A stretch of DNA of 64,000 nt from NCBI GenBank assembly GCA_022868165.1, contig JALHYA010000017.1, positions 11,634 through 75,633 on the forward strand, given 5' to 3'. Both the position numbers and the translations under genes were made by a program. Of the stretch, positions 24,937 through 48,757 are shown one piece after another (position 1 is the stretch's first letter; every line of letters begins with the position of its first letter). The notes under the pieces are model-generated. The model ran no database searches. It was not told where the DNA came from and saw nothing but the letters and a program-made list of their open reading frames with translations. The stretch is from Patescibacteria group bacterium. Its GTDB lineage: Bacteria > Patescibacteriota > Microgenomatia > UBA8517.

Positions 24937-25156
24937 AACCTCTGATCTTGCGCTTATAAGCGTAGCTTGCAAACCCTTCGGGTTTATAAGCGAAGCTTGT
25001 GTCGCGAAATATTGGTGCCAGCGACAGGACTCGAACCTGTGACGGCTCGCTTATGAAACGAGTGCTCTACCGCTGAGCTACGCTGGCATATTTCGCGTCA
25101 TGAAATCCCGCTCTTAGGCGATAGCCGCACCTCTTGGTGCACTGAGCTACGTAGCC
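24919..25156 (-). tRNA. interrupted tRNA-like gene hosting tRNA-Met (complex, possibly degenerate)
   Basis: The minus strand starts GGCTACG TA GCTC AG... at 25156 and ends ...AGAGG TTCGAAT CCTCT CGTAGCC A at 24919, giving a 7/7 complementary acceptor stem. The D-loop region is expanded. A complete tRNA-Met flanked by a 12-bp inverted repeat sits in the anticodon region. I could not build a clean anticodon stem. Confidence 0.45.
25013..25087 (-). tRNA. tRNA-Met (anticodon CAT), CCA encoded
   Basis: GCCAGCG TA GCTC AGCGGTA GAGC A CTCGT TTCATAA GCGAG CCGTC ACAGG TTCGAGT CCTGT CGCTGGC A CCA. Full cloverleaf built by hand. Confidence 0.9.
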
Positions 25157-25263
25157 GCGTCAATGCTTAGCTCGCCTAATTCAATTCTGTCCCTTTCGGG
25201 ACACGAATCTTTACCGCTCGCTAGCCTTTCCTTTCAAAATTGCTAGGCAATTTTGGTGTTTAC

Positions 25264-25282
25264 AAAATCGCAATGCGATTTT
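25264..25282. terminator. palindromic hairpin AAAATCGCA-A-TGCGATTTT (bidirectional terminator-like)
   Basis: 9-nt arms with T-tracts on both strands. Lies about 80 nt downstream of the 25359-25428 tRNA on the minus strand. Confidence 0.4.
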
Positions 25283-25358
25283 GAGAGGAGGAGCCGACTT
25301 GAAATAGCTAAGTCCCGACTAAATCGGGACGAAGCGCAAAAGTCGAGCTCCGACGATG

Positions 25359-25428
25359 TTGCGGGGCTAGGAGTTGAACCTAGCCTGGAAGATTATGAGC
25401 CTTCCGTGCAGCCGTACACTACCCCGCA
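25359..25428 (-). tRNA. tRNA with CAT anticodon (Met or Ile2-type), small D-loop, no encoded CCA
   Basis: TGCGGGG TA GTGT ACGGCT GCAC G GAAGG CTCATAA TCTTC CAGG CTAGG TTCAACT CCTAG CCCCGCA A. U1-A72 pair. No GGG/CCC initiator signature in the anticodon stem. Confidence 0.72.
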
Positions 25429-25454
25429 CGTAGATGAACGGGCTCTATTATACC

Positions 25455-25817
25455 TCAAAGGAACAGTTTCAGCCACTTTCTCCAGGTTGGGTCAGGCAGT
25501 TTTTCTTCCTCTTCCGGTAGCCTCGGAGCCAACTCTTCTAGGATTTTTGTTTCCGGCAAAACTATCACTATTTCGCCCTTTTTAGCCAGCCCCAACTTAT
25601 CCCGTAGCTGTTTTTCAATATATTCCTCGCTCTGGGCTTCTTTAAGTCTAGCTTCCAAGTCGCTATTTTCTCCCTGAAGCTTAGTAATATTTTCCTTTAT
25701 CTTATCTGTCCCCCTTTTTGCTTCAAGTCCTTTGAATACATTTCTAACCAAGGAAATACTCAAAAGCACTGCAAGTCCTAAAAGTAATAAATTCGTATAT
25801 TTTGCTAACTTTTGCAT
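25455..25817 (-). CDS. septum formation initiator (FtsB/DivIC family)
   Basis: 120 aa with an N-terminal TM helix, then a coiled coil ...ENITKLQGENSDLEARLKEAQSEEYIEKQLRDKLGLAKKGEIVI. Confidence 0.8.
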   Translation of the reverse strand: MQKLAKYTNLLLLGLAVLLSISLVRNVFKGLEAKRGTDKIKENITKLQGENSDLEARLKEAQSEEYIEKQLRDKLGLAKKGEIVIVLPETKILEELAPRLPEEEEKLPDPTWRKWLKLFL

Positions 25818-25879
25818 TGTAGCTTATAAGCACAGCTTGTGAGACTTTACTTTAAAAAGTAAACGTCTCATAATATGCG

Positions 25880-25907
25880 TTGACTCAGCAGAAATATGTG
25901 CTAGAAT
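25880..25907 (+). promoter_or_regulatory. sigma70-like promoter TTGACT-N16-TAGAAT for the recombinase gene
   Basis: Hexamers read directly. The -10 is bracketed by an 8-bp inverted repeat, GCAGAAAT (25888-25895) and ATTTCTGC (25923-25930). Confidence 0.55.
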
Positions 25908-25948
25908 ATAGGTCCTGCGAAAATTTCTGCTCCTAAGTTTATCTGATT

Positions 25949-26815
25949 ATGGCACAAGATACTCTAAAAAACCTGCTACCCAAGTTTGTCGAAAGCTTGA
26001 AAACCAAAGGTCGCTCCCCGTCGACCGTTCTCGCCTATCGGGCAGACCTTGAACAGCTTGTACAGTTTCTATTAAGCAAGAATAAGCCCCTTTCGGACCA
26101 GGTTAGACCCAGCGATTTGGAGGGCTTCCGTGACACCCTTTTGGCCGAAAAATACACTCCCAAAAGCGTATCCCGCAAGCTAAACGCCGTCAAAACTTTC
26201 TTTAGATGGCTGATTGCCGAGAATATTCTTACATCCGATCCTTCGGCTTCCGTAGCCCATCCCAAGATAGAAAGTTCTCTTCCCAAGTTTCTTTCCCAGC
26301 TGGAATATAGGGCTCTTCGTGATGTCGTCCGCGGGGATGTCAGAATAGCCGCTATTGTGGAGCTTATCTTGCAAACCGGAATGAGAATTTCCGAGGTTGC
26401 AAACCTTAAAATCGAAAATGTCAAAGAGAATGAAGCAAAAATTGAGGCTTACGCTACCCAGCCCGAGCGCACCGTTCCTCTAAACAAGCCGGCCAAAGAC
26501 GCTCTAAATGCTTATTTGGCAATCAGACCCGACAAAAACGGCTCGCCGTATGTGTTTGTAAGCAAAACCGGTCATCCGTTGGCAGTAAGAAATATAAGGG
26601 CCGCAATAGACAGATATATGCAAAAGGCAGAAGTTCCCGCCTATTCGGTTAATGATTTGAGAACTACTTTTATAGTCGAAAATCTTAAGGCCGGAGTTGA
26701 TTTGGTTCTTCTTTCCCAAGTAACGGGCCACAAAAGACTTTCGACAACCGAGCGTTATTTGGAGTTAGCCCAAGTCACCGAGCCCGGCAAGCGCCAAATC
26801 CTTCAGGAGCTTTAA
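25949..26815 (+). CDS. tyrosine recombinase (XerC/XerD-like integrase family)
   Basis: 288 aa. N-terminal SAM-like core-binding domain. Catalytic residues in TGMRISEV ... TGHKRLSTTERYLEL (R..HxxR..Y). Confidence 0.88.
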   Translation: MAQDTLKNLLPKFVESLKTKGRSPSTVLAYRADLEQLVQFLLSKNKPLSDQVRPSDLEGFRDTLLAEKYTPKSVSRKLNAVKTFFRWLIAENILTSDPSASVAHPKIESSLPKFLSQLEYRALRDVVRGDVRIAAIVELILQTGMRISEVANLKIENVKENEAKIEAYATQPERTVPLNKPAKDALNAYLAIRPDKNGSPYVFVSKTGHPLAVRNIRAAIDRYMQKAEVPAYSVNDLRTTFIVENLKAGVDLVLLSQVTGHKRLSTTERYLELAQVTEPGKRQILQEL

Positions 26816-26820
26816 AAGTT

Positions 26821-27019
26821 TGGTGGAGCCGCTTGGGACCGAACCAAGTACCTGTTGTTTATGATAGAGCTTCACTCTGACATGTCAGCAAAACCTCTGT
26901 GGAACGGGATGGGATCGAACCATCGACCTCATGTTTATAAGACATGTGCTCTAACCACTGAGCTACCGTTCCATTATTGCTGTCATAAGACAACCGCTCT
27001 ACCAATGAGCTACGGCTCC
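26821..27019 (-). tRNA. tRNA gene split in the anticodon loop by a ~130-nt insert (anticodon CAT or TAT depending on junction), CCA encoded
   Basis: The 5' part (27019->26990) reads GGAGCCG TA GCTC ATTGGTA GAGC G GTTGT. The 3' part (26858->26821) reads ACAAC AGGTA CTTGG TTCGGTC CCAAG CGGCTCC A CCA. The acceptor (7/7) and anticodon (5/5) stems are perfectly complementary across the insert. Confidence 0.72.
26900..26972 (-). tRNA. tRNA-Ile (anticodon TAT), located inside the split tRNA
   Basis: GGAACGG TA GCTC AGTGGTTA GAGC A CATGT CTTATAA ACATG AGGTC GATGG TTCGATC CCATC CCGTTCC A. Canonical 73-nt cloverleaf. Confidence 0.9.
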
Positions 27020-35605: not shown

Positions 35606-36247
35606 TTATCTAAACAAAATAATGGGCCATTCCCAAAGAACATGAAGGAAGATTGAAGAGAAAACATTCTTTGTCCGGGCAAAAACAAAAGCCGAACCCA
35701 ATCCAAAAAGAGCAGTGATAAGTAGATTTACCATTGTTGCCGAAGCGCCCAACTGCAGAACAAAAATGTAAATCGGAACGTGTATTAGAACCCAAACAAG
35801 AGTTGTTATTACATTGGCGAGCCATTCATTTTTCAGAGCAAGCCACAACCTGTTAAACATATATCCCCTAAACGCAATCTCCTCACTCACGGCTGTTGCA
35901 AACGATATTCCCAAAGCCATAGGAAGCGTCTTGTCTCCAATATTTGCCGCAAAACTTAGGCCGTTGTGCTTAATAAAATTGATAATCAGCGCCTCCATCA
36001 CAAAAAACGAACCCAGGGCCAGAGAAAAATAAACGGAGGGGAAGAGGTTTTTGACTGTTATCCCCAAAGAATCCAAACCCAAGCCCTCTTTTTTGATAAT
36101 TACAAAAACCGGTATCAACCAAATAATGGGTTTTACAACCAACTCCTCTACTTCATCGGGTAGTTGTATTAAAAACCTGTAAAGTCCCCAGACTATCAAA
36201 AGATATGTTGCGTAAACCGTCGCTGTTTTTAAATAATTTTCTTTCAT
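35606..36247 (-). CDS. CPBP family intramembrane glutamic endopeptidase (CAAX protease/Abi family)
   Basis: 213 aa polytopic. Motif 1 SEEIAFRGY, later HVPIY and HVLWE His motifs. Confidence 0.85.
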   Translation of the reverse strand: MKENYLKTATVYATYLLIVWGLYRFLIQLPDEVEELVVKPIIWLIPVFVIIKKEGLGLDSLGITVKNLFPSVYFSLALGSFFVMEALIINFIKHNGLSFAANIGDKTLPMALGISFATAVSEEIAFRGYMFNRLWLALKNEWLANVITTLVWVLIHVPIYIFVLQLGASATMVNLLITALFGLGSAFVFARTKNVFSSIFLHVLWEWPIILFR

Positions 36248-36729
36248 TGCCCTTTCATTTTACATTCTTTATATGCTAGGCCGATGGCTTTGATAACCAT
36301 ATCTACTCTTTCTTTCGCCTCGGTGACACTCAGAGCATTCTTTTCGTTGGGAAACCAATGGAAAACCAAATTTCTGCAATTTTTCCAAGTGTCCCAAAGG
36401 GTATCCGCAAGCATGTTTGTCCCGGTAAAAGCGACCAGTTTGTCGTAGACGCTCTCGCTCCTGAAACTTTTTTCCAGAGAAGGATTTAAAGCTTTCCCGA
36501 TCCTAAAATGCTTTCCGTAGTAATCCTGGGGGGTGATAAACTCCAAATCCAAAAACAATTTTTTCAAAAATCCTTCGTAGGCTTTGGCTGCAGGAAAAAC
36601 CACAAAAGCATAGTCATGGAAATCCTCCTTGCCGTAATATGTTTCGGACAACAAAACCGCCTCATTTAGAAGCTTCTGAAGATCTTCTCCCAGGTAATTC
36701 CACCAGACCTCTTTCGACAGCTCACCCAT
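36244..36729 (-). CDS. hypothetical cytoplasmic helical protein with Rx4H (HEPN-like) motif
   Basis: 161 aa. NCRNLVFHW fits R-N-x3-H at about three-quarters of the length, as in HEPN domains. ATGA and TAATG overlaps with both neighbours. The family assignment rests on this one motif. Confidence 0.55.
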   Translation of the reverse strand: MGELSKEVWWNYLGEDLQKLLNEAVLLSETYYGKEDFHDYAFVVFPAAKAYEGFLKKLFLDLEFITPQDYYGKHFRIGKALNPSLEKSFRSESVYDKLVAFTGTNMLADTLWDTWKNCRNLVFHWFPNEKNALSVTEAKERVDMVIKAIGLAYKECKMKGQ

Positions 36730-37397
36730 TATTTTATTCCCAAAGTAACCGAAATGGTCAATTTTCCGCTGCTTTCGGCAAGTCCAACAAATCCGCTCGT
36801 TTTGTCCTTCTCAAAAGAAATAGTCTGCATTGCCTCTTGAGCAAGCTCGTTGTCTATCTTCCAACCACCAGCCGTAAGTTTATCTTTATAGAATAATTTT
36901 ACTTGGGTCACCGAGTCCGTCGTTTCCCAAACGACAGAAATTCCCTTGCTGTCTTCTCCGGTGGTTGTCCAAGAGGATGTTAGTTTGGCTCCGGGATAAA
37001 TCGGAAAATCGCTTGGGAAACCATCCGGCAGTTTTCCTTCTGCCGAGTAGGAAAACTGTCCTCCCTTACCGTCGAAGCTAATCTTTTTGCCGTCATTCTC
37101 CACCTTGACGTTTTCTCCTGCTGTCTTGGAAAGGAAAAGTGAGAGAAATTTTGAACTGATTTTCCCCCCTAAGCTTCTCCACAAAACCCGGGCCGCAAAT
37201 CCAACCAAAACCAAAACGGCAAGAACCGATAAGAGAATAATCAGTAGCTTGTTAGACTTTTTCTTGGGCTCTTCCTTTTCTTCTTTTTTATCTTCCAGTT
37301 TATCTTCCAAAAGAAACTCACCTCCTACCAAAAAACAATAGTCCAATAATATTATCATGCGGGGTTTTAAGTCAAACCCCGAAAGCCTGTATGACAT
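36729..37397 (-). CDS. membrane-anchored extracytoplasmic protein, function unknown
   Basis: 222 aa. Charged KE-rich N-terminus, one TM helix (LLIILLSVLAVLVLVGFAA), and a beta-rich C-terminal domain (FPIYPGAKL...VKLFYKDKLTAGGWKI). Confidence 0.6.
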   Translation of the reverse strand: MSYRLSGFDLKPRMIILLDYCFLVGGEFLLEDKLEDKKEEKEEPKKKSNKLLIILLSVLAVLVLVGFAARVLWRSLGGKISSKFLSLFLSKTAGENVKVENDGKKISFDGKGGQFSYSAEGKLPDGFPSDFPIYPGAKLTSSWTTTGEDSKGISVVWETTDSVTQVKLFYKDKLTAGGWKIDNELAQEAMQTISFEKDKTSGFVGLAESSGKLTISVTLGIK

Positions 37398-37508: not shown

Positions 37509-39728
37509 ATGAAAGAAAAACTGCGGCTTGTTTTTGGAAAACTAAGAAAATTTTTTGCGAACGGAAAAAGGATTAAGGCTCTACTTTATTGGGGAGTTGT
37601 AGCCGTGGTCTTGACATGGCTTTTCTGGGGAATACCGCTCCCGACCGCCCTTTCTTCCAAACAAATCCCGGTTTCAACCAAACTTTATGACAGAAACGGA
37701 AAACTGATTTATGAAATATACACCGACAAAAGAAGTACGCCGATTAAACTTTCGGATCTCCCGGCTTATGTCAAAGAGGCCACTATTTCTATAGAAGACA
37801 AAGATTTTTACAAGCATTACGGATTTTCTTTTACCGGCATTGCCCGCGCTGCTTTTAATATAGTTTTTAAAAGAAATCTTCAGGGCGGGTCAACCCTAAC
37901 TCAACAATTGGTCAAAAATGCCCTTCTGTCCCCCGAACGCACGGTCAAGAGAAAAATTCGGGAATTCGTTTTAACAATGTTTGTCGAATCTCTTTACTCA
38001 AAAGACCAAATTCTGGAGATGTATCTAAACCAAATCCCCTACGGTTCAACCGCATACGGAATTGAAGCCGCGAGCGAACTTTATTTCGGAAAACAGGCAA
38101 AGGATTTGACGTTAGCCGAGTCGGCTCTTTTGGCGGGACTACTTTCATCTCCCACGGCATACTCGCCTTTTGGGGCCCACCCGGAGCTTGCCAAGGAAAG
38201 GCAAATAGACGTGCTCAGAAGAATGGTCCAAGACAAATATATCACTCAAGCCCAGGCGGATGAGGCAAAAAATCAGGAATTAAAGTATGCAGAAATTACC
38301 CCTCCTGCCGCTCCCCATTTTGCCCTCTGGATAAAAGAGCAGCTTGCAGAAAAGTACGGAACAAACATTGTCGAACAGGGGGGTTTGAGGGTTACCACTA
38401 CTCTTGATTTGGATTTGCAGGATTTTGCCCAAAAAGCCGTTGCGACCGAGGTTGCTAAACTCAAAGCCCAAAAGGTGGGAAATGGGGCCGTGATTGTTAC
38501 AAGGCCAAAAACCGGAGAGATTTTGGCGATTGTAGGGTCGAAGGATTATTTCGCAACGGATGAGGACGGTAAAGTGAATGTCATCCTATCCAAAAGACAG
38601 CCTGGCTCTTCCATAAAACCCTTAAATTATGCCTTGGCTATAAAAGATAAAAAAATAAATGCAGCCACTCCGCTCGCGGACGTTCCCAGCTGTTTCGCTG
38701 TTATTGGACAACCCATCTATTGCCCCACCAACTACGACGAAAAATTCCATGGAGCGATACAAGCCCGCTTCGCCCTTGGAAATTCTTACAATATACCGGC
38801 CGTTCGTGTTCTTGCCTTAAACGGTCTGGATAATTTTGTCAACTTTGCCAAACAGATGGGAATTACAACCTTTACCGACCCCGCCAATTATGGTCTTTCT
38901 TTAACCCTTGGAGGCGGTGAGGTCCGCCCGTACGATATGGCCGTGGCCTTTGGAGTCTTTGCCAACCAAGGAATCAAACAGCCTCTTATTTCAATACTCC
39001 AAGTAACCGACTGGAGGGGAAAAATTTATGAGGAAACCAAACCTAAAGATGTTGAACTTACGGGCGAGCGTGTTCTTAATCCCGAAGTAACCTTTATTGT
39101 TTCCCACATTCTTTTGGATAATAATGCGCGTTCACAGGCATTTGGCGAAACTTCATATCTCAATGTTGCCGGCCATCCTGAGGTTTCGGTCAAAACCGGA
39201 ACTACCAATGACAGAAAGGATAATTGGACGATAGGATATACCGCGGACGCTGCAGTTGTAGCTTGGGTTGGCAACAACGACAACTCTTCAATGTCTGGGG
39301 CGGTTTCGGGAATTTCGGGTGCTTCTCCTATTTGGAACAGGATAATGAAAGCGGTTTTGGATTCGGCGGAAAAAGGAGCTTACGACAAAGAGGAGGAAGG
39401 ACACGCCTGGCCACACCAACCGTCCGATGTTGTGGGCGCAACAATATGTTCTACGGATGGACTTTTGCCTCCCGGGCCCAAAGACAACCCCGGCTGTCCC
39501 GCACGTTTTGAGTACTTCCTAGAAGGAACCTTGCCGACCCAAACCAGCGGCCAAAAAGCCGATATTCCGATAAACAAGGATGACCATACCGTCTCCGCTC
39601 CCGATACCCCGCCGGACAAGATTGAAACCCAAAACCATCCGGTTTTATATGACCCTCTAAAAACTTTGGTGTGCCTTGACTGTCCGATACCTACAAAAGA
39701 GGTAACAATCAGTTATCCTCTGAGGTAG
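37509..39728 (+). CDS. class A penicillin-binding protein (GT51 transglycosylase + transpeptidase)
   Basis: 739 aa with an N-terminal TM helix. GT51 motifs EDKDFYKHYG and GGSTLTQQLVKN. Transpeptidase motifs SSIK, SYN and KTGTT. Confidence 0.92.
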   Translation: MKEKLRLVFGKLRKFFANGKRIKALLYWGVVAVVLTWLFWGIPLPTALSSKQIPVSTKLYDRNGKLIYEIYTDKRSTPIKLSDLPAYVKEATISIEDKDFYKHYGFSFTGIARAAFNIVFKRNLQGGSTLTQQLVKNALLSPERTVKRKIREFVLTMFVESLYSKDQILEMYLNQIPYGSTAYGIEAASELYFGKQAKDLTLAESALLAGLLSSPTAYSPFGAHPELAKERQIDVLRRMVQDKYITQAQADEAKNQELKYAEITPPAAPHFALWIKEQLAEKYGTNIVEQGGLRVTTTLDLDLQDFAQKAVATEVAKLKAQKVGNGAVIVTRPKTGEILAIVGSKDYFATDEDGKVNVILSKRQPGSSIKPLNYALAIKDKKINAATPLADVPSCFAVIGQPIYCPTNYDEKFHGAIQARFALGNSYNIPAVRVLALNGLDNFVNFAKQMGITTFTDPANYGLSLTLGGGEVRPYDMAVAFGVFANQGIKQPLISILQVTDWRGKIYEETKPKDVELTGERVLNPEVTFIVSHILLDNNARSQAFGETSYLNVAGHPEVSVKTGTTNDRKDNWTIGYTADAAVVAWVGNNDNSSMSGAVSGISGASPIWNRIMKAVLDSAEKGAYDKEEEGHAWPHQPSDVVGATICSTDGLLPPGPKDNPGCPARFEYFLEGTLPTQTSGQKADIPINKDDHTVSAPDTPPDKIETQNHPVLYDPLKTLVCLDCPIPTKEVTISYPLR

Positions 39729-39740
39729 ATATGGTAAAAT

Positions 39741-39856
39741 CTTCCGCCGACTAAAGTCGGCGGCACCAGCCCCTAAGGGAAGATTATAGCCCTAGGTTCA
39801 ATTCATCCTCGCAATAAATTGCAAGGTCTTCTTGAATCTATGGTAAAATTGCCGCA
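39741..39856 (+). promoter_or_regulatory. conserved multi-hairpin element upstream of PBP gene 2 (copy 2)
   Basis: Hairpin CCGCCGACT-AA-AGTCGGCGG (39744-39763). Box GTTCAATTCATCC (39796-39808). A different variable hairpin. Box TCTTGAAT (39830-39837), at the identical 34-nt spacing. TGgTAAAAT (39841-39849) lies 7 nt from the GTG. Confidence 0.6.
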
Positions 39857-40840
39857 GTGAAAGGCAGGTCTCAAATTTTTACTGCCCTAAGTTTCTTCGC
39901 CAGCGCCCTTAAGTTTGTCGGCCGGCCTTTCTACCTAATCTTCTCTTACGGATTTATTGCTCTGATTTTGGCAATATCCGCCGTCGGTATTTTGATAAAA
40001 GCCATTCTCTCCTTTCCAATAAGGCTTCTCCCGAAAATCCCTCTGAAAATCAAGTTTAAGTTCCGTCCCAAATTATTAACGACGTCTGTTTTGGGGCTGG
40101 CAATAATTCTTTCGATTTGGTTCTTTGTTTTCCGCAACCTTCCCTCTCCCAAAGAGCTTGTTAGCCGCAATCTGGAAGTTTCCACAAAGATTTATGACCG
40201 AAACGGGATCCTTTTGTATAAAATCTACAAAAATAAAAATCGCACGGTTGTCCCTTTATATAGGATTCCTCAAAACGTAAGGCTGGCCACTTTGGCTGCC
40301 GAGGACGCCGAGTTTTATAGCCATCCAGGAATATCAATTCGCGGGATAATCCGCTCTATTGTTACAAACTTGAAGCAAGGAGAACTAACCGGAGGCTCAA
40401 CAATTACCCAGCAGCTTGTTAAAAATGCGCTTCTTTCGCCGGAAAAGACTTTTCGACGGAAACTTCGCGAAGTAATTCTTGCATTCGAAGTCGAACTTGT
40501 ATACTCAAAAGACCAAATTTTGGAAATGTATCTGAATGAAGTTTCCTATGGCGGAACCGCGTACGGAATTCAAGAAGCCGCCCAGCTTTATTTCGATAAA
40601 GATGTAGAAAATCTGGATTTGGCCGAAGCCGGGCTTCTGGCCGGACTTCCAATAAGTCCGACAAAATATTCTCCGTTCGGATCAGAACCCGACCTGGCAC
40701 TCGTTCGCCAGAAAGAAGTGCTGGAACTTATGCGCATCAACAAATACATTACCCAAAGGGAAATGGAGGAAGCCGAAAACGAACCCGTCAGCTTTGCCCC
40801 AAACAGAACGGATATCAAAGCTCCCCATTTTGTAATGTAA
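39857..40840 (+). CDS. class A PBP paralogue, N-terminal part (TM anchor + GT51 transglycosylase), ends at in-frame TAA
   Basis: EDAEFYSHPG and GGSTITQQLVKN motifs. Terminates at ...KAPHFVM-TAA where the paralogue reads APHFALW. Confidence 0.8.
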   Translation: MKGRSQIFTALSFFASALKFVGRPFYLIFSYGFIALILAISAVGILIKAILSFPIRLLPKIPLKIKFKFRPKLLTTSVLGLAIILSIWFFVFRNLPSPKELVSRNLEVSTKIYDRNGILLYKIYKNKNRTVVPLYRIPQNVRLATLAAEDAEFYSHPGISIRGIIRSIVTNLKQGELTGGSTITQQLVKNALLSPEKTFRRKLREVILAFEVELVYSKDQILEMYLNEVSYGGTAYGIQEAAQLYFDKDVENLDLAEAGLLAGLPISPTKYSPFGSEPDLALVRQKEVLELMRINKYITQREMEEAENEPVSFAPNRTDIKAPHFVM

Positions 40841-42103
40841 GTTAAAGAGCAATTGGTTGATAAATATGGTGAAGAAATGGTTCAGCAGGGAGGACTCAAT
40901 GTCATAACTACTCTTGATTATTCTATACAAAGATTGGCGGAAGATGCGGTAAAAAACGAAGTCGCCAGCCTTCAAGCGCTACATGTAGGAAACGGGGCGG
41001 CGTTGGTTTTAAACCCGAGAACAGGAGAGGTTCTTGCAATGGTAGGCTCCAAAAATTATTTTGATACCGAAGGAGGAGGAAACGTAAACGTAACCCTGCG
41101 CCCTCGCCAGCCCGGCTCTTCAATAAAAATCGTCAACTATGCCTATGCTCTTTCCACTAGTTACACCCCGTCATCGATTCTTTCGGATACTCCCGTCACT
41201 TTTTCAACCGGAGGACTTGCCCCTTACACCCCCAAAAACTATGACGGCAAATACCGGGGGAATCTTACCCTTAGAAGTGCTTTTGCGGAATCCAGAAACG
41301 TCCCTGCCGTAAAGGTTCTCGCATCTTACGGTGTAAGCCACATGATTGACCTTGGAACCAAAATGGGCATTACAACTTGGACCGAACCATCTAACTACGG
41401 ACTATCTCTCACTCTCGGTGGTGGTGAAGTGAAACTTTTGGATTTGGCACGGGTATTCGGGACAATTGCCGATTACGGCAAAAAACCTCCGATTTTTTCA
41501 ATTATTAAGGTAACCGACTATAAAGGAAAGGTTTTGGAAGAAAATAAGTGTTTAACCGAAGAGCCGTGCGAAGGTCCCGAAGTCGTTGACCCAAGGGTTG
41601 CGTTTCTCTTAACAGACATCCTCAAAGATAACAGTGCCAGAACCCCCGCTTTTGGTTCAAATTCCGCATTGGCTATTGCCGGCCATCCCGAAGTTGCAGT
41701 CAAGACCGGAACCAGCAATGATTTAAAGGACAATCTGACCCTCGGTTTTACCCAAAAATACCTTGTTGCAACTTGGGTAGGAAATAACGACTCAAGTCCC
41801 ATGTCAAAAATTGCCTCGGGCATAACAGGCGCGGCACCAATCTGGCATACAATTATGGCAAGCCTTCTTTCCAATGAAAAACCCGACCCCTGGCTGGTCC
41901 CGGACGGGGTTGCCAAGCTTTCGATTTGCACACTGACCGGAACTTTGGCCTGCGAAGAATGCAATTCTTATTCCGAATGGTTTCTGAAGGAAAAAGCCCC
42001 GACGAGGGCGTGTACAAAAGAAGCCATAACAAAGATTAAGGACGAGAAAAAGACCCAAGGCAAAATTCTAGAACCCGCAGCGAAAATTGAGGTTGTTAAC
42101 TAA
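40841..42103 (+). CDS. class A PBP paralogue, C-terminal part (linker + transpeptidase), same frame as 39857-40840
   Basis: Continues VKEQLVDKYGEEMVQQGGL in frame directly after the TAA. Has SSIK, SRN and KTGTS motifs. The first possible start is TTG at 40853. Confidence 0.75.
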   Translation, partial: VKEQLVDKYGEEMVQQGGLNVITTLDYSIQRLAEDAVKNEVASLQALHVGNGAALVLNPRTGEVLAMVGSKNYFDTEGGGNVNVTLRPRQPGSSIKIVNYAYALSTSYTPSSILSDTPVTFSTGGLAPYTPKNYDGKYRGNLTLRSAFAESRNVPAVKVLASYGVSHMIDLGTKMGITTWTEPSNYGLSLTLGGGEVKLLDLARVFGTIADYGKKPPIFSIIKVTDYKGKVLEENKCLTEEPCEGPEVVDPRVAFLLTDILKDNSARTPAFGSNSALAIAGHPEVAVKTGTSNDLKDNLTLGFTQKYLVATWVGNNDSSPMSKIASGITGAAPIWHTIMASLLSNEKPDPWLVPDGVAKLSICTLTGTLACEECNSYSEWFLKEKAPTRACTKEAITKIKDEKKTQGKILEPAAKIEVVN

Positions 42104-42761
42104 GCTCTTTGTAGAGAAGATAGAACGGAATCAGAAAAAATGGTCCCATAAAAATCGCAAAAACCGGTCCGACGTAAGGAATGTTGGCAAAAACCATCTG
42201 AATCAGAATGTAGATAAGTAAAAATACCGAGAATCTTCCCAATATCGGCCAAAATCTTCCTTTAGTCAGCGCCTTGCTTTTTGCCAAAGATTCCTTAACC
42301 GAAGTTCCTTTTGAAATTTGTATAAAAAGCGAAAAGGAAAACCAAATTCCGAAAATTATTCCTGGAATTATAAGAAGGACAAATCCTAAAGCCATAATCA
42401 GTCCTCTGGCCAAACTTACAAGAAAGAAGCACCAGGTCTTTTTCCATGAAGTTAAAAGAGTCTCCTTTACTACAAGGGTTCTGCCCTCAACAGCTCTGAT
42501 TACCGCTTCATAGGTAGCTGCTTGAAACCAAATACCGATGATGGCAAGCGGGATTGCCGAGGCCACCAAGGGCAATATAAAAGCAGGTTGTCTCGCAGCA
42601 TTCGAGCCGGTTCCTTTTGCAACCACAAAAAATATGCTCGTAGCAATTGATAAAACCAAAAACAGCAAACCGAGTTTTAGGAAATAAATCAAATTTTTCT
42701 TCTCAAAATAAATTTTGAATGCTTCCCTAATATATAAAACCGGTGACGAAAGTTTTTTCAT
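42096..42761 (-). CDS. polytopic membrane protein, function unknown
   Basis: 221 aa, about 6 TM helices. 4-nt overlap with the upstream serine hydrolase gene. Confidence 0.6.
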   Translation of the reverse strand: MKKLSSPVLYIREAFKIYFEKKNLIYFLKLGLLFLVLSIATSIFFVVAKGTGSNAARQPAFILPLVASAIPLAIIGIWFQAATYEAVIRAVEGRTLVVKETLLTSWKKTWCFFLVSLARGLIMALGFVLLIIPGIIFGIWFSFSLFIQISKGTSVKESLAKSKALTKGRFWPILGRFSVFLLIYILIQMVFANIPYVGPVFAIFMGPFFLIPFYLLYKELS

Positions 42762-43813
42762 TTTGTCATCCCGTCATAAACGACTTTTGAAATCTCCGAA
42801 ATTGCCGTTTGTGCTTCGCCCAAGTCCGCATCTTTGCTCATAATTACCAAAATATATGGCTTGTCGGCAAAGATAATTCCGGCGTCGTTTACTACCGAAT
42901 CAATCATACCGTATTTGTGGGAAACTCTTACCTGTTTGGGCACTCCTTGGGGAATTAAATCCTCGCGAACGGTGTTGGTAAGAAAATCCAATATCTCTGT
43001 CTTGTATTTTTCCGATACAATCTCATCCCGCCATAGTTTTTTGAAAAAAATCCCAACATCTTTCGGGGTCGTTTGGTTTTCGCTAAACGATGTATTTTCC
43101 ATGCCTATTTCTTTTGTGACTCTTTCAATCTTTTCCACCCCTCCGACTTCGTTTTGTGCTATATAAAGTGCGGTATTATCCGAACCGTTTCCCATTAAAC
43201 GGGCCAGTTCTTCGAGCGTTATAACGGTTCCCTCCGGCTTTTGGGAAAGCTCTCCTGCCCCACCTTGTTTGTCCGAATTAACCAAAGTGTGGGTAGTACT
43301 TAAATCCAAACTTCCATTTTCAACTTCCTTGAAAATCGTTGCCAAAACTTGAAGTTTGTTGAAAGATGCCGACTGAAAAATTTCGCCTTCTCTTTCGCCA
43401 AAGCCAAAGCCGTTTGATAAATCGATAACATAAAAACCGTAAGTTCCAGAAAGTTTGGAGATTTTCTCTTCGAAAGCCAATTTTATTTTGTCGGCTTTAT
43501 CTCTTTGTTCTTTTGTCCCTTCAATTGTGATGGTCCCGCTTCCCCACTCGGGTAGAGAGATTTTTGGAAATTTAGGCAAGGTAAAACCCTCGGAAGAAAT
43601 TGTGAGAAAAGCCGCAACAGAAGCGGTTACCAATAAAGTTGAAAGAACAATTATTCTTTCTTTTCTGCCCCACGGCTTAAGGGGTTCTTTTCTTTTCTTT
43701 TTGTTCTCCGGCCTTAAATCCTTAAAGGATTTCCTTGAAGAACTTTTTTCCTCCAACTCGTCTTCCTCTAAGTCTTCCTCTTCTTCGCTTTTTTTCCTTC
43801 TAAAAAATGGCAT
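42758..43813 (-). CDS. class A beta-lactamase-like serine hydrolase, membrane anchored
   Basis: SxxK (SASFNK), SDN (GSDNTA) and a KTG-like HKYG motif. Charged N-terminus plus a TM helix. Confidence 0.75.
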   Translation of the reverse strand: MPFFRRKKSEEEEDLEEDELEEKSSSRKSFKDLRPENKKKRKEPLKPWGRKERIIVLSTLLVTASVAAFLTISSEGFTLPKFPKISLPEWGSGTITIEGTKEQRDKADKIKLAFEEKISKLSGTYGFYVIDLSNGFGFGEREGEIFQSASFNKLQVLATIFKEVENGSLDLSTTHTLVNSDKQGGAGELSQKPEGTVITLEELARLMGNGSDNTALYIAQNEVGGVEKIERVTKEIGMENTSFSENQTTPKDVGIFFKKLWRDEIVSEKYKTEILDFLTNTVREDLIPQGVPKQVRVSHKYGMIDSVVNDAGIIFADKPYILVIMSKDADLGEAQTAISEISKVVYDGMTK

Positions 43814-44899: not shown

Positions 44900-45889
44900 T
44901 CAAAATTCTTCTACCTTTACTCCGCTTGAGCGTGCTCTCTCTAACCATTCTGGCATTTCTTCGGAGGTTAGCAAGCCCTTTTGCGAACCGGTATAGCCTA
45001 TCACCGAGGCGGAATTTACCGTTCCCCAAATTAGCGCCTCGCCGATATCTTTCCCTTTAATTACTGCGCTCAAAAACCCTGATCCGAAAGCATCTCCGGC
45101 CCCGGTTCTTTCGAAAGCATCGACCGGCAAAACTCCGACTTTCAACCCCTTTACCAAGTCGTAAGCAAAGGCTCCATTGCCCCCGTCGGTTATTACGCAA
45201 ATCTTGGGGCCCAGCTTATTAAGGGCCACACATAAATCTTTCTCTTTGCCGTGCGAAGGCCCAAAACCTGTTAGCTTTTCCGCTTCTTCCCTGTTCACAA
45301 AAATAATAAAAGTCATAGCCAATACGTCGGCAATTTCCTTTACTCCTCCTTTTAGCTGCCAGCTACCAGGGTTAAATACCAACTTGGTATTGGGATTTTT
45401 CCTCAGCCAGTCTAAGAAATGATTATAAAAAGGCCGGTAACTTTCTCCCATTGAAGTAAGATATGCCCAGGGAACATTCGGCAGCTGTACCGGAAATTCG
45501 TAAGAGCGCGGTGCATGAAAGGTAAAAATCGTTCTTTCCCCCGAATAATTGATTACAGTTGAATAGTTCGAAGCCGTGGAAGGCTGCTGAAAAACGTAAG
45601 TTAAATCGATTCCTTCTGCTTGGAGTTTCTCCACCAGCATTCCTCCTATGTAATCGTCGCCCAAAGTAAGAACAAGAGCATCTGTAACTCCTAACCTTTT
45701 TGCTCCAACGGCGTTGTTGGCGGCATTCCCGCCGACCGAAAACTGGAGATTTTTTACGGGAATTTTTTGGCCGTAGGAAAAAGCTATAAAGCACTCCTTT
45801 GTGTCAATCTGGCATAGCTGTTCGGACTCGGTCGGAGCCATAAAAACGTCTATCGACGCATCGCCTATGGACAGTAGGTCATAATTCAT
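44900..45889 (-). CDS. PfkB-family carbohydrate kinase
   Basis: 329 aa. N-terminal GG motif (SVGGNAANNA) and C-terminal TGAGDAFGSGF anion-hole motif. Confidence 0.85.
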   Translation of the reverse strand: MNYDLLSIGDASIDVFMAPTESEQLCQIDTKECFIAFSYGQKIPVKNLQFSVGGNAANNAVGAKRLGVTDALVLTLGDDYIGGMLVEKLQAEGIDLTYVFQQPSTASNYSTVINYSGERTIFTFHAPRSYEFPVQLPNVPWAYLTSMGESYRPFYNHFLDWLRKNPNTKLVFNPGSWQLKGGVKEIADVLAMTFIIFVNREEAEKLTGFGPSHGKEKDLCVALNKLGPKICVITDGGNGAFAYDLVKGLKVGVLPVDAFERTGAGDAFGSGFLSAVIKGKDIGEALIWGTVNSASVIGYTGSQKGLLTSEEMPEWLERARSSGVKVEEF

Positions 45890-46898
45890 TTTCCATCTCC
45901 TCCAAATACTGCCCCTGAGAAGCCAAACTATTTAGCTTAGCCCGTTTATATAAAGCAGACTGGACTGCTTTTCCGTTCTCCACCTCGTTTTTCCAAATCT
46001 CCATTGCTGGACCTTCAAGCCCGCGCTCGAATGAGAAACTTACTTTCCAAGGCAAATCTTTCGTTTTACAAATCTCATTTAGCCTTGCCGTTGCAAGGAT
46101 CACATCCTGACCTCCGGAAAGAAAAACAATACCAGGAACTTCTTTCGGAACCGTCTTAAGAAGGGTTCGAATTGTCATCTGGGCTACTTCTTCTAAACCA
46201 GCCTGGGTCTGACACTTGTATCCGGACAAAACCATATTGGGTTTAAGAATTATTCCTTCCAGAGCTACTTTTTGCTCTTTGAGTTGGGCAAAAACATTCA
46301 AAAGAACAGCGGTAGTGATTTCCTCTGACTTTTCAATTGTGTGTTCCCCATCCATCAAGACTTCGGGTTCAACTATTGGAACCAATCCCTGCTCCTGGCA
46401 AAATTTTGCATAACTGGCCAACCTCTGAGCATTTGGCTCGATACACCTCTGGGATGGTATTCCATCCCCGATGCTGATTACCGCTCTCCATTTGGCAAAT
46501 TTTGCTCCCATTTGTTTGTACTCGGCAAGCCTTTCACTCAAGCCTTCAAGTCCTTCTGTTACCTTTTCCTCCGGAGAGCCTTCAAGCTCCACAGTTCCTT
46601 TGTCGACTTTGATTCCGGGAACAATTCCCTGTTTTTGTAATAGATCGACAAAACCGATTCCCTCTGAAGTTCTTTGTCTGATGGTTTCGTCGTAAAGAAT
46701 TACCCCCGAAATAAATTCTCCCAAACCTGGGGTACTAATAAGAACTTCCCTAAACATCGTGCGCGTTTCAAGCGTTGGAGTAATTCCAGCCGCTGTCAAT
46801 CTCTTATCCATTGTTGGAGTTGAGGCATCGGTCGCCCAAATTCCCTTTCCGGGTGCCACCAATTCTTTGGCGGTAGATTCAAGATCATTCTCAGCCAT
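45879..46898 (-). CDS. fructose-bisphosphate aldolase, class I
   Basis: GKGIWATDASTPTMDKRL N-terminal motif and the Schiff-base lysine context ILKPNMV. About 340 aa. Confidence 0.85.
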   Translation of the reverse strand: MAENDLESTAKELVAPGKGIWATDASTPTMDKRLTAAGITPTLETRTMFREVLISTPGLGEFISGVILYDETIRQRTSEGIGFVDLLQKQGIVPGIKVDKGTVELEGSPEEKVTEGLEGLSERLAEYKQMGAKFAKWRAVISIGDGIPSQRCIEPNAQRLASYAKFCQEQGLVPIVEPEVLMDGEHTIEKSEEITTAVLLNVFAQLKEQKVALEGIILKPNMVLSGYKCQTQAGLEEVAQMTIRTLLKTVPKEVPGIVFLSGGQDVILATARLNEICKTKDLPWKVSFSFERGLEGPAMEIWKNEVENGKAVQSALYKRAKLNSLASQGQYLEEMENEL

Positions 46899-47913
46899 TT
46901 TTTTCCTTTTTAACTATTACTCTTTTGACCGCTTCAACAATACTTTTGGATTTCATTCCGTATTTTTCCAGAAGCTCGTCGGGCGCACCCGATTCGCCAA
47001 AATGGTCCGGCATTCCGACAAATTCCATTGGAGTCGGGTAATTTCTGGCCAATGTTTCTGCCACTGCGCCACCCAATCCGCCGGTAATTTGATGCTCTTC
47101 AACCGTAACGACCGCTCCGGTAGTTTTTGCTGCTCGGATTATTGCTTGCTCGTCTAAGGGTTTAAGCGTATGGGAATTGAGCACCAAAACATCGATTCCT
47201 TTCTTTTCCAGCTCTTTTGCCGCCAATAGGGCTTCATAAACTAAGGGTCCGCAGGCGACTATGGCGACTAACGGATCGCCATGTCGTCCTGAGATTGTCG
47301 AAGGACCCCATAGAACTTCTGCACGACCGATCTTAAAAGGAGTATCTTCGGTTGTAAAAACGGGGGATTTTTCGCGGGCAAAGCGAATATAAACAGGGTG
47401 TTCGGTTTTGGCCGCCGCCACGGTTGCCTTCTTGGCCTCGAGACTGTCGCAAGGAGCAATAACCGTCATGTTGGGCATTGCCCGCATCAAAGCCATATCC
47501 TCAAGCATCTGGTGTGTGGCTCCGTCGGGCCCGACGGATATGCCGGCATGTGCTCCGGCAATCTTTACCGGCACATCGTTTAAGGCAATTGTGGTTCTAA
47601 TTTGTTCCCAATTTCTTCCGGGAGAAAAAGCGGCGTAACTACTTATAAAAGGAATTTTGCCGTAATTTGCCATTCCCGCGGCAATTGTAGCGAGAGCTTG
47701 CTCGGCAACTCCAACCTCAATAAATCTCTCGGGGAAACGCTCCTTAAAAAGAATCGAGCGGGTACTCTCGGTCACGTCCGCGCACAAAACTACAACTCTT
47801 TCGTCCTTCTCCCCCACCGCCACCAACCCTTCCCCATATCCCTGCCGGGTGGGAATCATTTCTATATCCTTCTGGAAAATCTTTTTGGATAGTTTCGCTT
47901 CCTTATTAATCAT
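46891..47913 (-). CDS. transketolase, C-terminal (pyrimidine-binding) subunit
   Basis: PTRQGYGEGL ... FIEVGVAEQ ... typical of the split transketolase B subunit. Met at 47913 gives an 8-nt overlap with the N-terminal subunit gene. Confidence 0.88.
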   Translation of the reverse strand: MINKEAKLSKKIFQKDIEMIPTRQGYGEGLVAVGEKDERVVVLCADVTESTRSILFKERFPERFIEVGVAEQALATIAAGMANYGKIPFISSYAAFSPGRNWEQIRTTIALNDVPVKIAGAHAGISVGPDGATHQMLEDMALMRAMPNMTVIAPCDSLEAKKATVAAAKTEHPVYIRFAREKSPVFTTEDTPFKIGRAEVLWGPSTISGRHGDPLVAIVACGPLVYEALLAAKELEKKGIDVLVLNSHTLKPLDEQAIIRAAKTTGAVVTVEEHQITGGLGGAVAETLARNYPTPMEFVGMPDHFGESGAPDELLEKYGMKSKSIVEAVKRVIVKKEKNG

Positions 47914-48757
47914 TTTCGCTTTTGATTTTTCCTCCCAACGTTCTGAGCTCTCTAAGGGCAATCTTTGCCTCCTCGGCTGTGGGAGGCTTACCGTGCCATT
48001 CAGGAAGGTTTTCCATAAAAGAAACCCCTTTGCCCGGAATTGTGTGGGCGATAATTACGGTTGGATTCTCATAAACTGCGCGGGCTTGTTCGACCGCATC
48101 GATAATTTGCTCGATATTGTGACCGTCGACTTCTATCACTGTCCAATTAAACGCTCTATATTTATCAACCAGAGGCTCAAGCGGCATCACATCTTCGGTG
48201 TGGCCGTCTATTTGGATATTGTTTCTATCAACTATTACGGTGAGATTTGAAAGGTTATATTTACCGGCAAAAAATACGGCCTCCCAGTGGTTTCCTTCGT
48301 CGTGTTCCCCGTCGGAACAGATACAAAACACTCTGAATCTTTTTCCGTCCATACGCGCAGCGTATGCATAACCCGAGGCTTGAGCCAAACCGCTGCCCAA
48401 AGGACCGGAAGTTGTTTCGACCCCGGGAAGCCTTAGCCTTTCGGGATGTCCTTGAAGTCTGGTTCCAAGATGACGCAGAGTTTTGAGTTCTGAAATCGGA
48501 AAATATCCCGCATGCGCCATTGTGGCGTAGCGCACCGGACAAATATGCCCGTTTGAAAGAATTAATCTGTCTCTATCTTCCCAAAAAGGATTTTTGGGGT
48601 CATGGTTCATAATCGCGAAGTATAGGGCGGTGAAAATATCTGCCGTTCCCAAAGGCCCTGCGGAGTGGCCGCTTCCGGCGGCCACGAGCATTTTTATTAT
48701 GTCCTTGCGGATATCATTGGCCTTCTTTTGAAGCTTTTCGATTGTATATTTGGGCAT
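47906..48757 (-). CDS. transketolase, N-terminal (TPP-binding) subunit
   Basis: GSGHSAGPLG, GHPE and SDGEHDEGNHWEA (GDG-x-N-like TPP motif). Confidence 0.88.
   Translation of the reverse strand: MPKYTIEKLQKKANDIRKDIIKMLVAAGSGHSAGPLGTADIFTALYFAIMNHDPKNPFWEDRDRLILSNGHICPVRYATMAHAGYFPISELKTLRHLGTRLQGHPERLRLPGVETTSGPLGSGLAQASGYAYAARMDGKRFRVFCICSDGEHDEGNHWEAVFFAGKYNLSNLTVIVDRNNIQIDGHTEDVMPLEPLVDKYRAFNWTVIEVDGHNIEQIIDAVEQARAVYENPTVIIAHTIPGKGVSFMENLPEWHGKPPTAEEAKIALRELRTLGGKIKSEND

Follow-up and report, generated by a model that had tools for sequence, protein, structure and literature searches.

Bifunctional class A PBPs (PBP1a, PBP1b, and PBP1c; TIGR02074; PDB 4OON, 3UDF, 3VMA, and 2OLU) combine an N-terminal anchor, a transglycosylase module with EDxxF and GxSTxTQQ motifs, an APHFVMY linker, and a transpeptidase module with SxxK, SxN, and KTG motifs. 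A simpler architecture, consisting of an anchor and a GT51 domain only, is represented by MtgA/SgtB (TIGR02070; PDB 3VMQ and 3HZS) and by the GT domain of Aquifex PBP1a (2OQO). Here, we analyzed a PBP gene located in a 64,000-nt stretch of DNA from a Patescibacteria group bacterium (contig JALHYA010000017.1 of assembly GCA_022868165.1), hereafter referred to as the window. The gene shares all of the above features with class A PBPs, and its intact allele aligns with them end to end; however, the polypeptide encoded in the window is interrupted at codon 328. An initial annotation of the locus had offered four explanations for the interruption without preferring any of them: a recent nonsense mutation, a sequencing or consensus error, stop-codon read-through, and a functional split. 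Our results favor the first two and speak against the other two.

Results

Two class A PBP genes lie in tandem in this Woesebacteria/Microgenomates (CPR) genome, and the interrupted gene is the downstream one; we refer to the upstream and downstream copies as paralogues A and B (Table 1). When 39857-42103 was read in one frame, we obtained 748 sense codons, one internal stop, and a terminal TAA. Thus, as the initial annotation had reported, the TAA lies in frame between the transglycosylase and the transpeptidase ORFs, in the context CAT TTT GTA ATG TAA GTT AAA GAG (40826-40849). The first ORF matches Pfam Transgly (PF00912, 1.4e-59) at residues 119-292, which correspond to profile positions 4-177 of 178, while the second matches Pfam Transpeptidase (PF00905, 4.5e-18). 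Each of the catalytic motifs that had been described as intact was recovered in the translation, namely, EDAEF, GGSTITQQ, SSIK (SxxK), SRN (SxN), and KTGTS (KTG). A hydropathy scan predicted an N-terminal membrane anchor in PBP B, with hydrophobic residues at approximately 20-58 and 71-97. The window therefore encodes the GT51 domain, the acyl-serine transpeptidase, and the predicted N-terminal anchor that characterize class A PBPs. In contrast, both modules reside on one polypeptide only in the allele assembled independently from the same strain and in all of the relatives.

Table 1. Coordinates of the tandem PBP genes and of the interruption in paralogue B (window positions).
Feature	Coordinates	Strand	Description
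Upstream tandem class A PBP (paralogue A), intact	37509-39728	+	739 aa; 47.5% identity to paralogue B
PBP paralogue B, N-terminal fragment	39857-40840	+	327 aa; anchor segments and complete GT51; exact match to MCJ7805795.1
In-frame TAA, codon 328	40838-40840	+	In place of the conserved Tyr of the APHFVMY motif, inter-domain linker
Single differing base	40840-40840	+	A in the window; C in the same-strain Logan assembly and in seven 93.5% relatives
PBP paralogue B, C-terminal fragment (transpeptidase)	40877-42103	+	408 aa from ATG 40877; exact match to MCJ7805796.1 (MUP46_04125)

The N-terminal region of PBP B (39857-40150) contains two strongly hydrophobic segments, which the orthologues P0001 and P0002 share; paralogue A contains a single such segment. 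If both segments of PBP B spanned the membrane, the topology of this extracytoplasmic enzyme would come into question.

We compared the window with an independent Logan assembly (run SRR19116065), in which two contigs encoding identical flanking proteins together cover positions 914-61144. Within these 60.2 kb, we found seven substitutions (9903, 13490, 35206, 35224, 40840, 45897, and 47294) and no indels. Besides the A at 40840, the alleles specific to the window include 9903G, 13490G, 35206A, 35224G, and 47294A. At position 40840, the Logan assembly carries C instead of A, giving TAC (Tyr) and an uninterrupted 748-aa PBP. This is the only nucleotide that distinguishes the 2247-nt gene from the intact same-strain allele, which bears out the earlier statement that no other lesion is present. 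Five of the seven differences (9903, 13490, 35206, 35224, and 45897) are synonymous transitions; by our own arithmetic, at least five synonymous changes out of seven would occur with P ≈ 0.013 if approximately 25% of random changes were synonymous. Because the differences are mostly synonymous, they represent real, selection-filtered strain variation, with the window being a distinct haplotype. The remaining difference, at 47294, is a Ser/Ile change; in solved transketolases, the loop that carries it varies or is missing. We considered whether this Ser→Ile change could be a second damaging substitution and, as such, a sign of an error-prone consensus; given its location, the site proved uninformative.

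The closest protein matches of PBP B are class A PBPs of Candidatus Woesebacteria, Microgenomates, and Patescibacteria, and all of the 120 matches listed are full length with both domains. Species-representative genomes reach 45-63% identity at most. Seven further assemblies (JGI, ENA, and Logan) showed ~93.5% identity in the gene; they carry TAC at the stop site, encode an intact 747-aa protein, and have the same gene order. The sense codon is thus TAC in all eight intact copies compared (the seven relatives and the same-strain Logan allele), and polarization with the 93.5% relatives as an outgroup identifies the A at this site as derived. Among 80 species-level relatives, the tblastn alignment ran uninterrupted across the stop site in every case, demonstrating that a split at this position is neither a recurrent nor a conserved arrangement. 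The residue found there was tyrosine in 72, tryptophan in five, and phenylalanine in three relatives, and the APHFVMY motif was nearly invariant. The proposal that the stop replaces an aromatic residue therefore holds, the aligned position being Trp in the upstream paralogue and Tyr in the true orthologues. We also detected a same-strand PBP-like match in the 3-kb upstream flank of 35 of the 80 relatives, consistent with a tandem pair.

Both fragments (MCJ7805795.1 and MCJ7805796.1) were found exclusively on one 92,447-nt MAG contig among ~15 billion proteins. A search of metagenome contigs for a second copy of the TAA allele, using the junction pattern with N at the variable base, returned only a TAC-bearing JGI contig; the same pattern had no match in genome contigs, and the 327-aa product gave no exact hit in the contig index. 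In the literature, nothing relevant was retrieved with the identifiers of the run, the proteins, the locus tag, and the contig.

Next, we looked at selection on the two halves of the gene. Relative to a 93.5% relative, dN/dS of PBP B was 0.10 for the part preceding the stop and 0.11 for the part following it, similar to 0.09 for the upstream paralogue. The initial annotation had suggested that frameshifts and further decay in orthologues would point to a plain pseudogene; instead, every orthologue is intact and evolves under purifying selection. The gene in the window itself differs from the intact allele by a single substitution and shows neither the multiple lesions nor the relaxed selection of a decaying pseudogene, although a relaxation would not be visible in dN/dS because the mutation is too recent.

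The ~93% relatives show a mosaic pattern of identity, with values between 70% and 99% per 300-nt segment (40668-42167 versus 39768-40667; also 45165-46064), and dS in the transpeptidase half of PBP B (0.33) is three times that in the transglycosylase half (0.11). These patterns suggest recombination between strains.

In the region 37509-43813, the tandem PBPs are followed by two convergent genes, one for a small membrane protein with a weak UPF0259 match and one for a 351-aa protein of the class A β-lactamase family (PF13354, 2.9e-47), an arrangement that is conserved in all close relatives. The minus strand of 36244-37397 carries a gene pair that may be toxin-antitoxin-like, comprising a 161-aa ORF with a weak HEPN_RnaseLS match and an AF_1845-family neighbor; the latter is 222 aa long in the window, and the gene call for its counterpart in the 93% relatives is 193 aa. 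Further upstream (25013-26972), two tRNA-Met(CAT) genes and a tRNA-Ile gene with the uncommon anticodon TAT flank a tyrosine-recombinase gene of the phage integrase family (25949-26815), and this segment may represent a hotspot of integration or a small mobile element. The transketolase on the minus strand (46891-48757) is encoded by two overlapping ORFs, an N-terminal one (47906-48757) and a C-terminal one (46891-47961), and its best PDB match is the split-chain enzyme of Carboxydothermus hydrogenoformans (6YAJ, 4e-83). In contrast to PBP B, the transketolase represents a known natural split.

We then weighed the possible origins of the stop. An evolved separation of PBP B into a membrane-anchored monofunctional transglycosylase and a separately initiated transpeptidase is very unlikely, even though both fragments retain complete domains with their catalytic motifs, a GGTGA precedes ATG 40877 with a 4-nt spacing, and stand-alone GT51 domains and natural monofunctional GTs are present in the PDB (2OQO and 3VMQ). 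The split is private, being found neither elsewhere in the same strain, nor in the seven close relatives, nor in any of the 80 species-level relatives. The hydropathy scan revealed no TM-like segment or signal sequence in the C-terminal fragment, and a fragment devoid of a hydrophobic segment could not be exported to the peptidoglycan on its own. The TTG at 40853, which had been put forward as a restart site and would give a 416-aa C-terminal fragment, is CTG in the close, 93.5% relatives, while the GGTGA is simply part of the conserved coding sequence for YGEE. The N-terminal fragment scored 131.2 bits against the MtgA equivalog TIGR02070, below the cut-off of 182.65, and its best match was PBP_1a_fam. 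We found no promoter-like site preceding the C-terminal fragment and no convincing internal promoter, Shine-Dalgarno (SD) sequence, or RNA structure for either separate expression or read-through. Production of the full-length protein by reading through or recoding the TAA is the least probable of all the explanations that we considered. It agrees with the intact downstream frame, but the latter is equally expected after any very recent mutation. Of the 68 ORFs of at least 100 aa in the window, 35 end in TAA, PBP B itself among them, so that TAA is the most frequent terminator there; on the basis of this stop-codon usage, we reject a change of the genetic code. UAA is recognized by both release factors and is not known to undergo programmed recoding in bacteria. 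The window contains three tRNAs (Met, Met, and Ile), none of which is a suppressor; the 100-nt stretch beginning at the stop is less stably folded than its shuffled counterparts (z = +1.33); and the stop is conserved in no relative. The initial annotation had also advised searching other genes for in-frame TAA; within the window, none is interrupted in this way. PBP B accounts for the only pair of long same-frame open stretches that derive from one gene; the three other same-frame pairs whose members appear as annotated genes in the Logan tables are distinct genes (Fpg and RecF, NAD(P)HX dehydratase and Fic, and NrdR and RNR). Together, the private stop, the TAA usage, the anchorless C-terminal fragment, the lack of a promoter-like site or RNA structure, and the CTG codon in relatives led us to reject recoding, read-through, and an evolved split. 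The stop is not an evolved arrangement.

This leaves a change that is recent or artefactual. To a genuine, very young TAC→TAA nonsense allele segregating in the population we give an even chance. It is supported by the mostly synonymous differences from the Logan assembly, the derived state of the A, the absence of decay, and the intact paralogue adjoining upstream; on the other hand, the TAA allele was found in no second assembly. A sequencing or consensus (assembly) error, in which case the A at 40840 would stem from the MAG assembly and the organism would carry TAC in an uninterrupted gene, is a serious possibility that we place somewhat short of even. The sole other assembly of the strain has C and an intact gene, all orthologues have TAC, the codon specifies an invariant aromatic residue, and the rest of the gene is untouched. 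Moreover, the two amino acid–altering differences (40840 and 47294) are both C→A on the + strand, the classic direction of oxidative-damage artefacts, unlike the five transitions. A nonsense change in a universally intact gene is also a priori likelier among errors, where it makes up ~4% of random changes, than among surviving SNPs. However, the preponderance of synonymous transitions points to true differences between haplotypes and not to a noisy consensus, and the compared 60.2 kb contain no indels. At normal depth, Illumina data produce consensus errors much less often than once per 60 kb.

Discussion

If the stop is a young nonsense allele, as we prefer, a C→A transversion at 40840 would have turned Tyr328 (TAC) into TAA in the captured genotype. 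Translation would then end past the membrane anchor and the transglycosylase domain, yielding a truncated, GT-only protein and the loss of the transpeptidase module of PBP B. The truncated protein may still polymerize glycan: isolated GT51 domains fold, as in the Aquifex PBP1a GT (2OQO) and Staphylococcus aureus MtgA (3VMQ), and thus, some glycan-polymerizing activity could persist. Even with a restart at ATG 40877, the resulting product would be expected to stay in the cytoplasm. The missing function would presumably be covered by the intact upstream paralogue, a possible functional back-up for PBP B.

One could further imagine that a real TAA allele is kept in a subpopulation because its anchored GT-only product is useful beside the intact paralogue and the transpeptidase module is dispensable; we regard this as extremely unlikely. 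If true, the allele would mark a natural first stage in the conversion of a bifunctional PBP into a monofunctional transglycosylase in a reduced-genome CPR bacterium. The case carries little weight for biology: at most, it captures a loss-of-function allele that arose less than ~0.01% divergence ago in one of the tandem class A PBPs of a CPR bacterium.

In GenBank, the two fragments are deposited as two CDSs rather than as one pseudogene, with MCJ7805795.1 labeled "transglycosylase domain-containing protein" and MCJ7805796.1 labeled "hypothetical protein." They are the halves of one interrupted PBP gene, and surveys of CPR cell-wall genes should not treat them as a monofunctional GT and an orphan transpeptidase, as gene-content counts could otherwise mislead.

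The 327-aa fragment has the same anchor and GT51-only architecture as MtgA/SgtB and the Aquifex GT; unlike MtgA, however, it is by descent a truncated PBP1a-family protein that carries a 35-residue linker stub. The intact allele scored 496.1 against TIGR02074 (PBP_1a_fam), slightly below the cut-off of 508.75, as is common among divergent proteins from CPR bacteria. One substitution, no further decay, a private lesion, and an available paralogue also characterize young nonsense polymorphisms or single-lesion pseudogenes in bacterial populations and MAG consensus errors, and the PBP B case is in no way distinct from them. Thus, PBP B is an ordinary, selectively maintained class A PBP with an ordinary single-base lesion and represents no new gene architecture.
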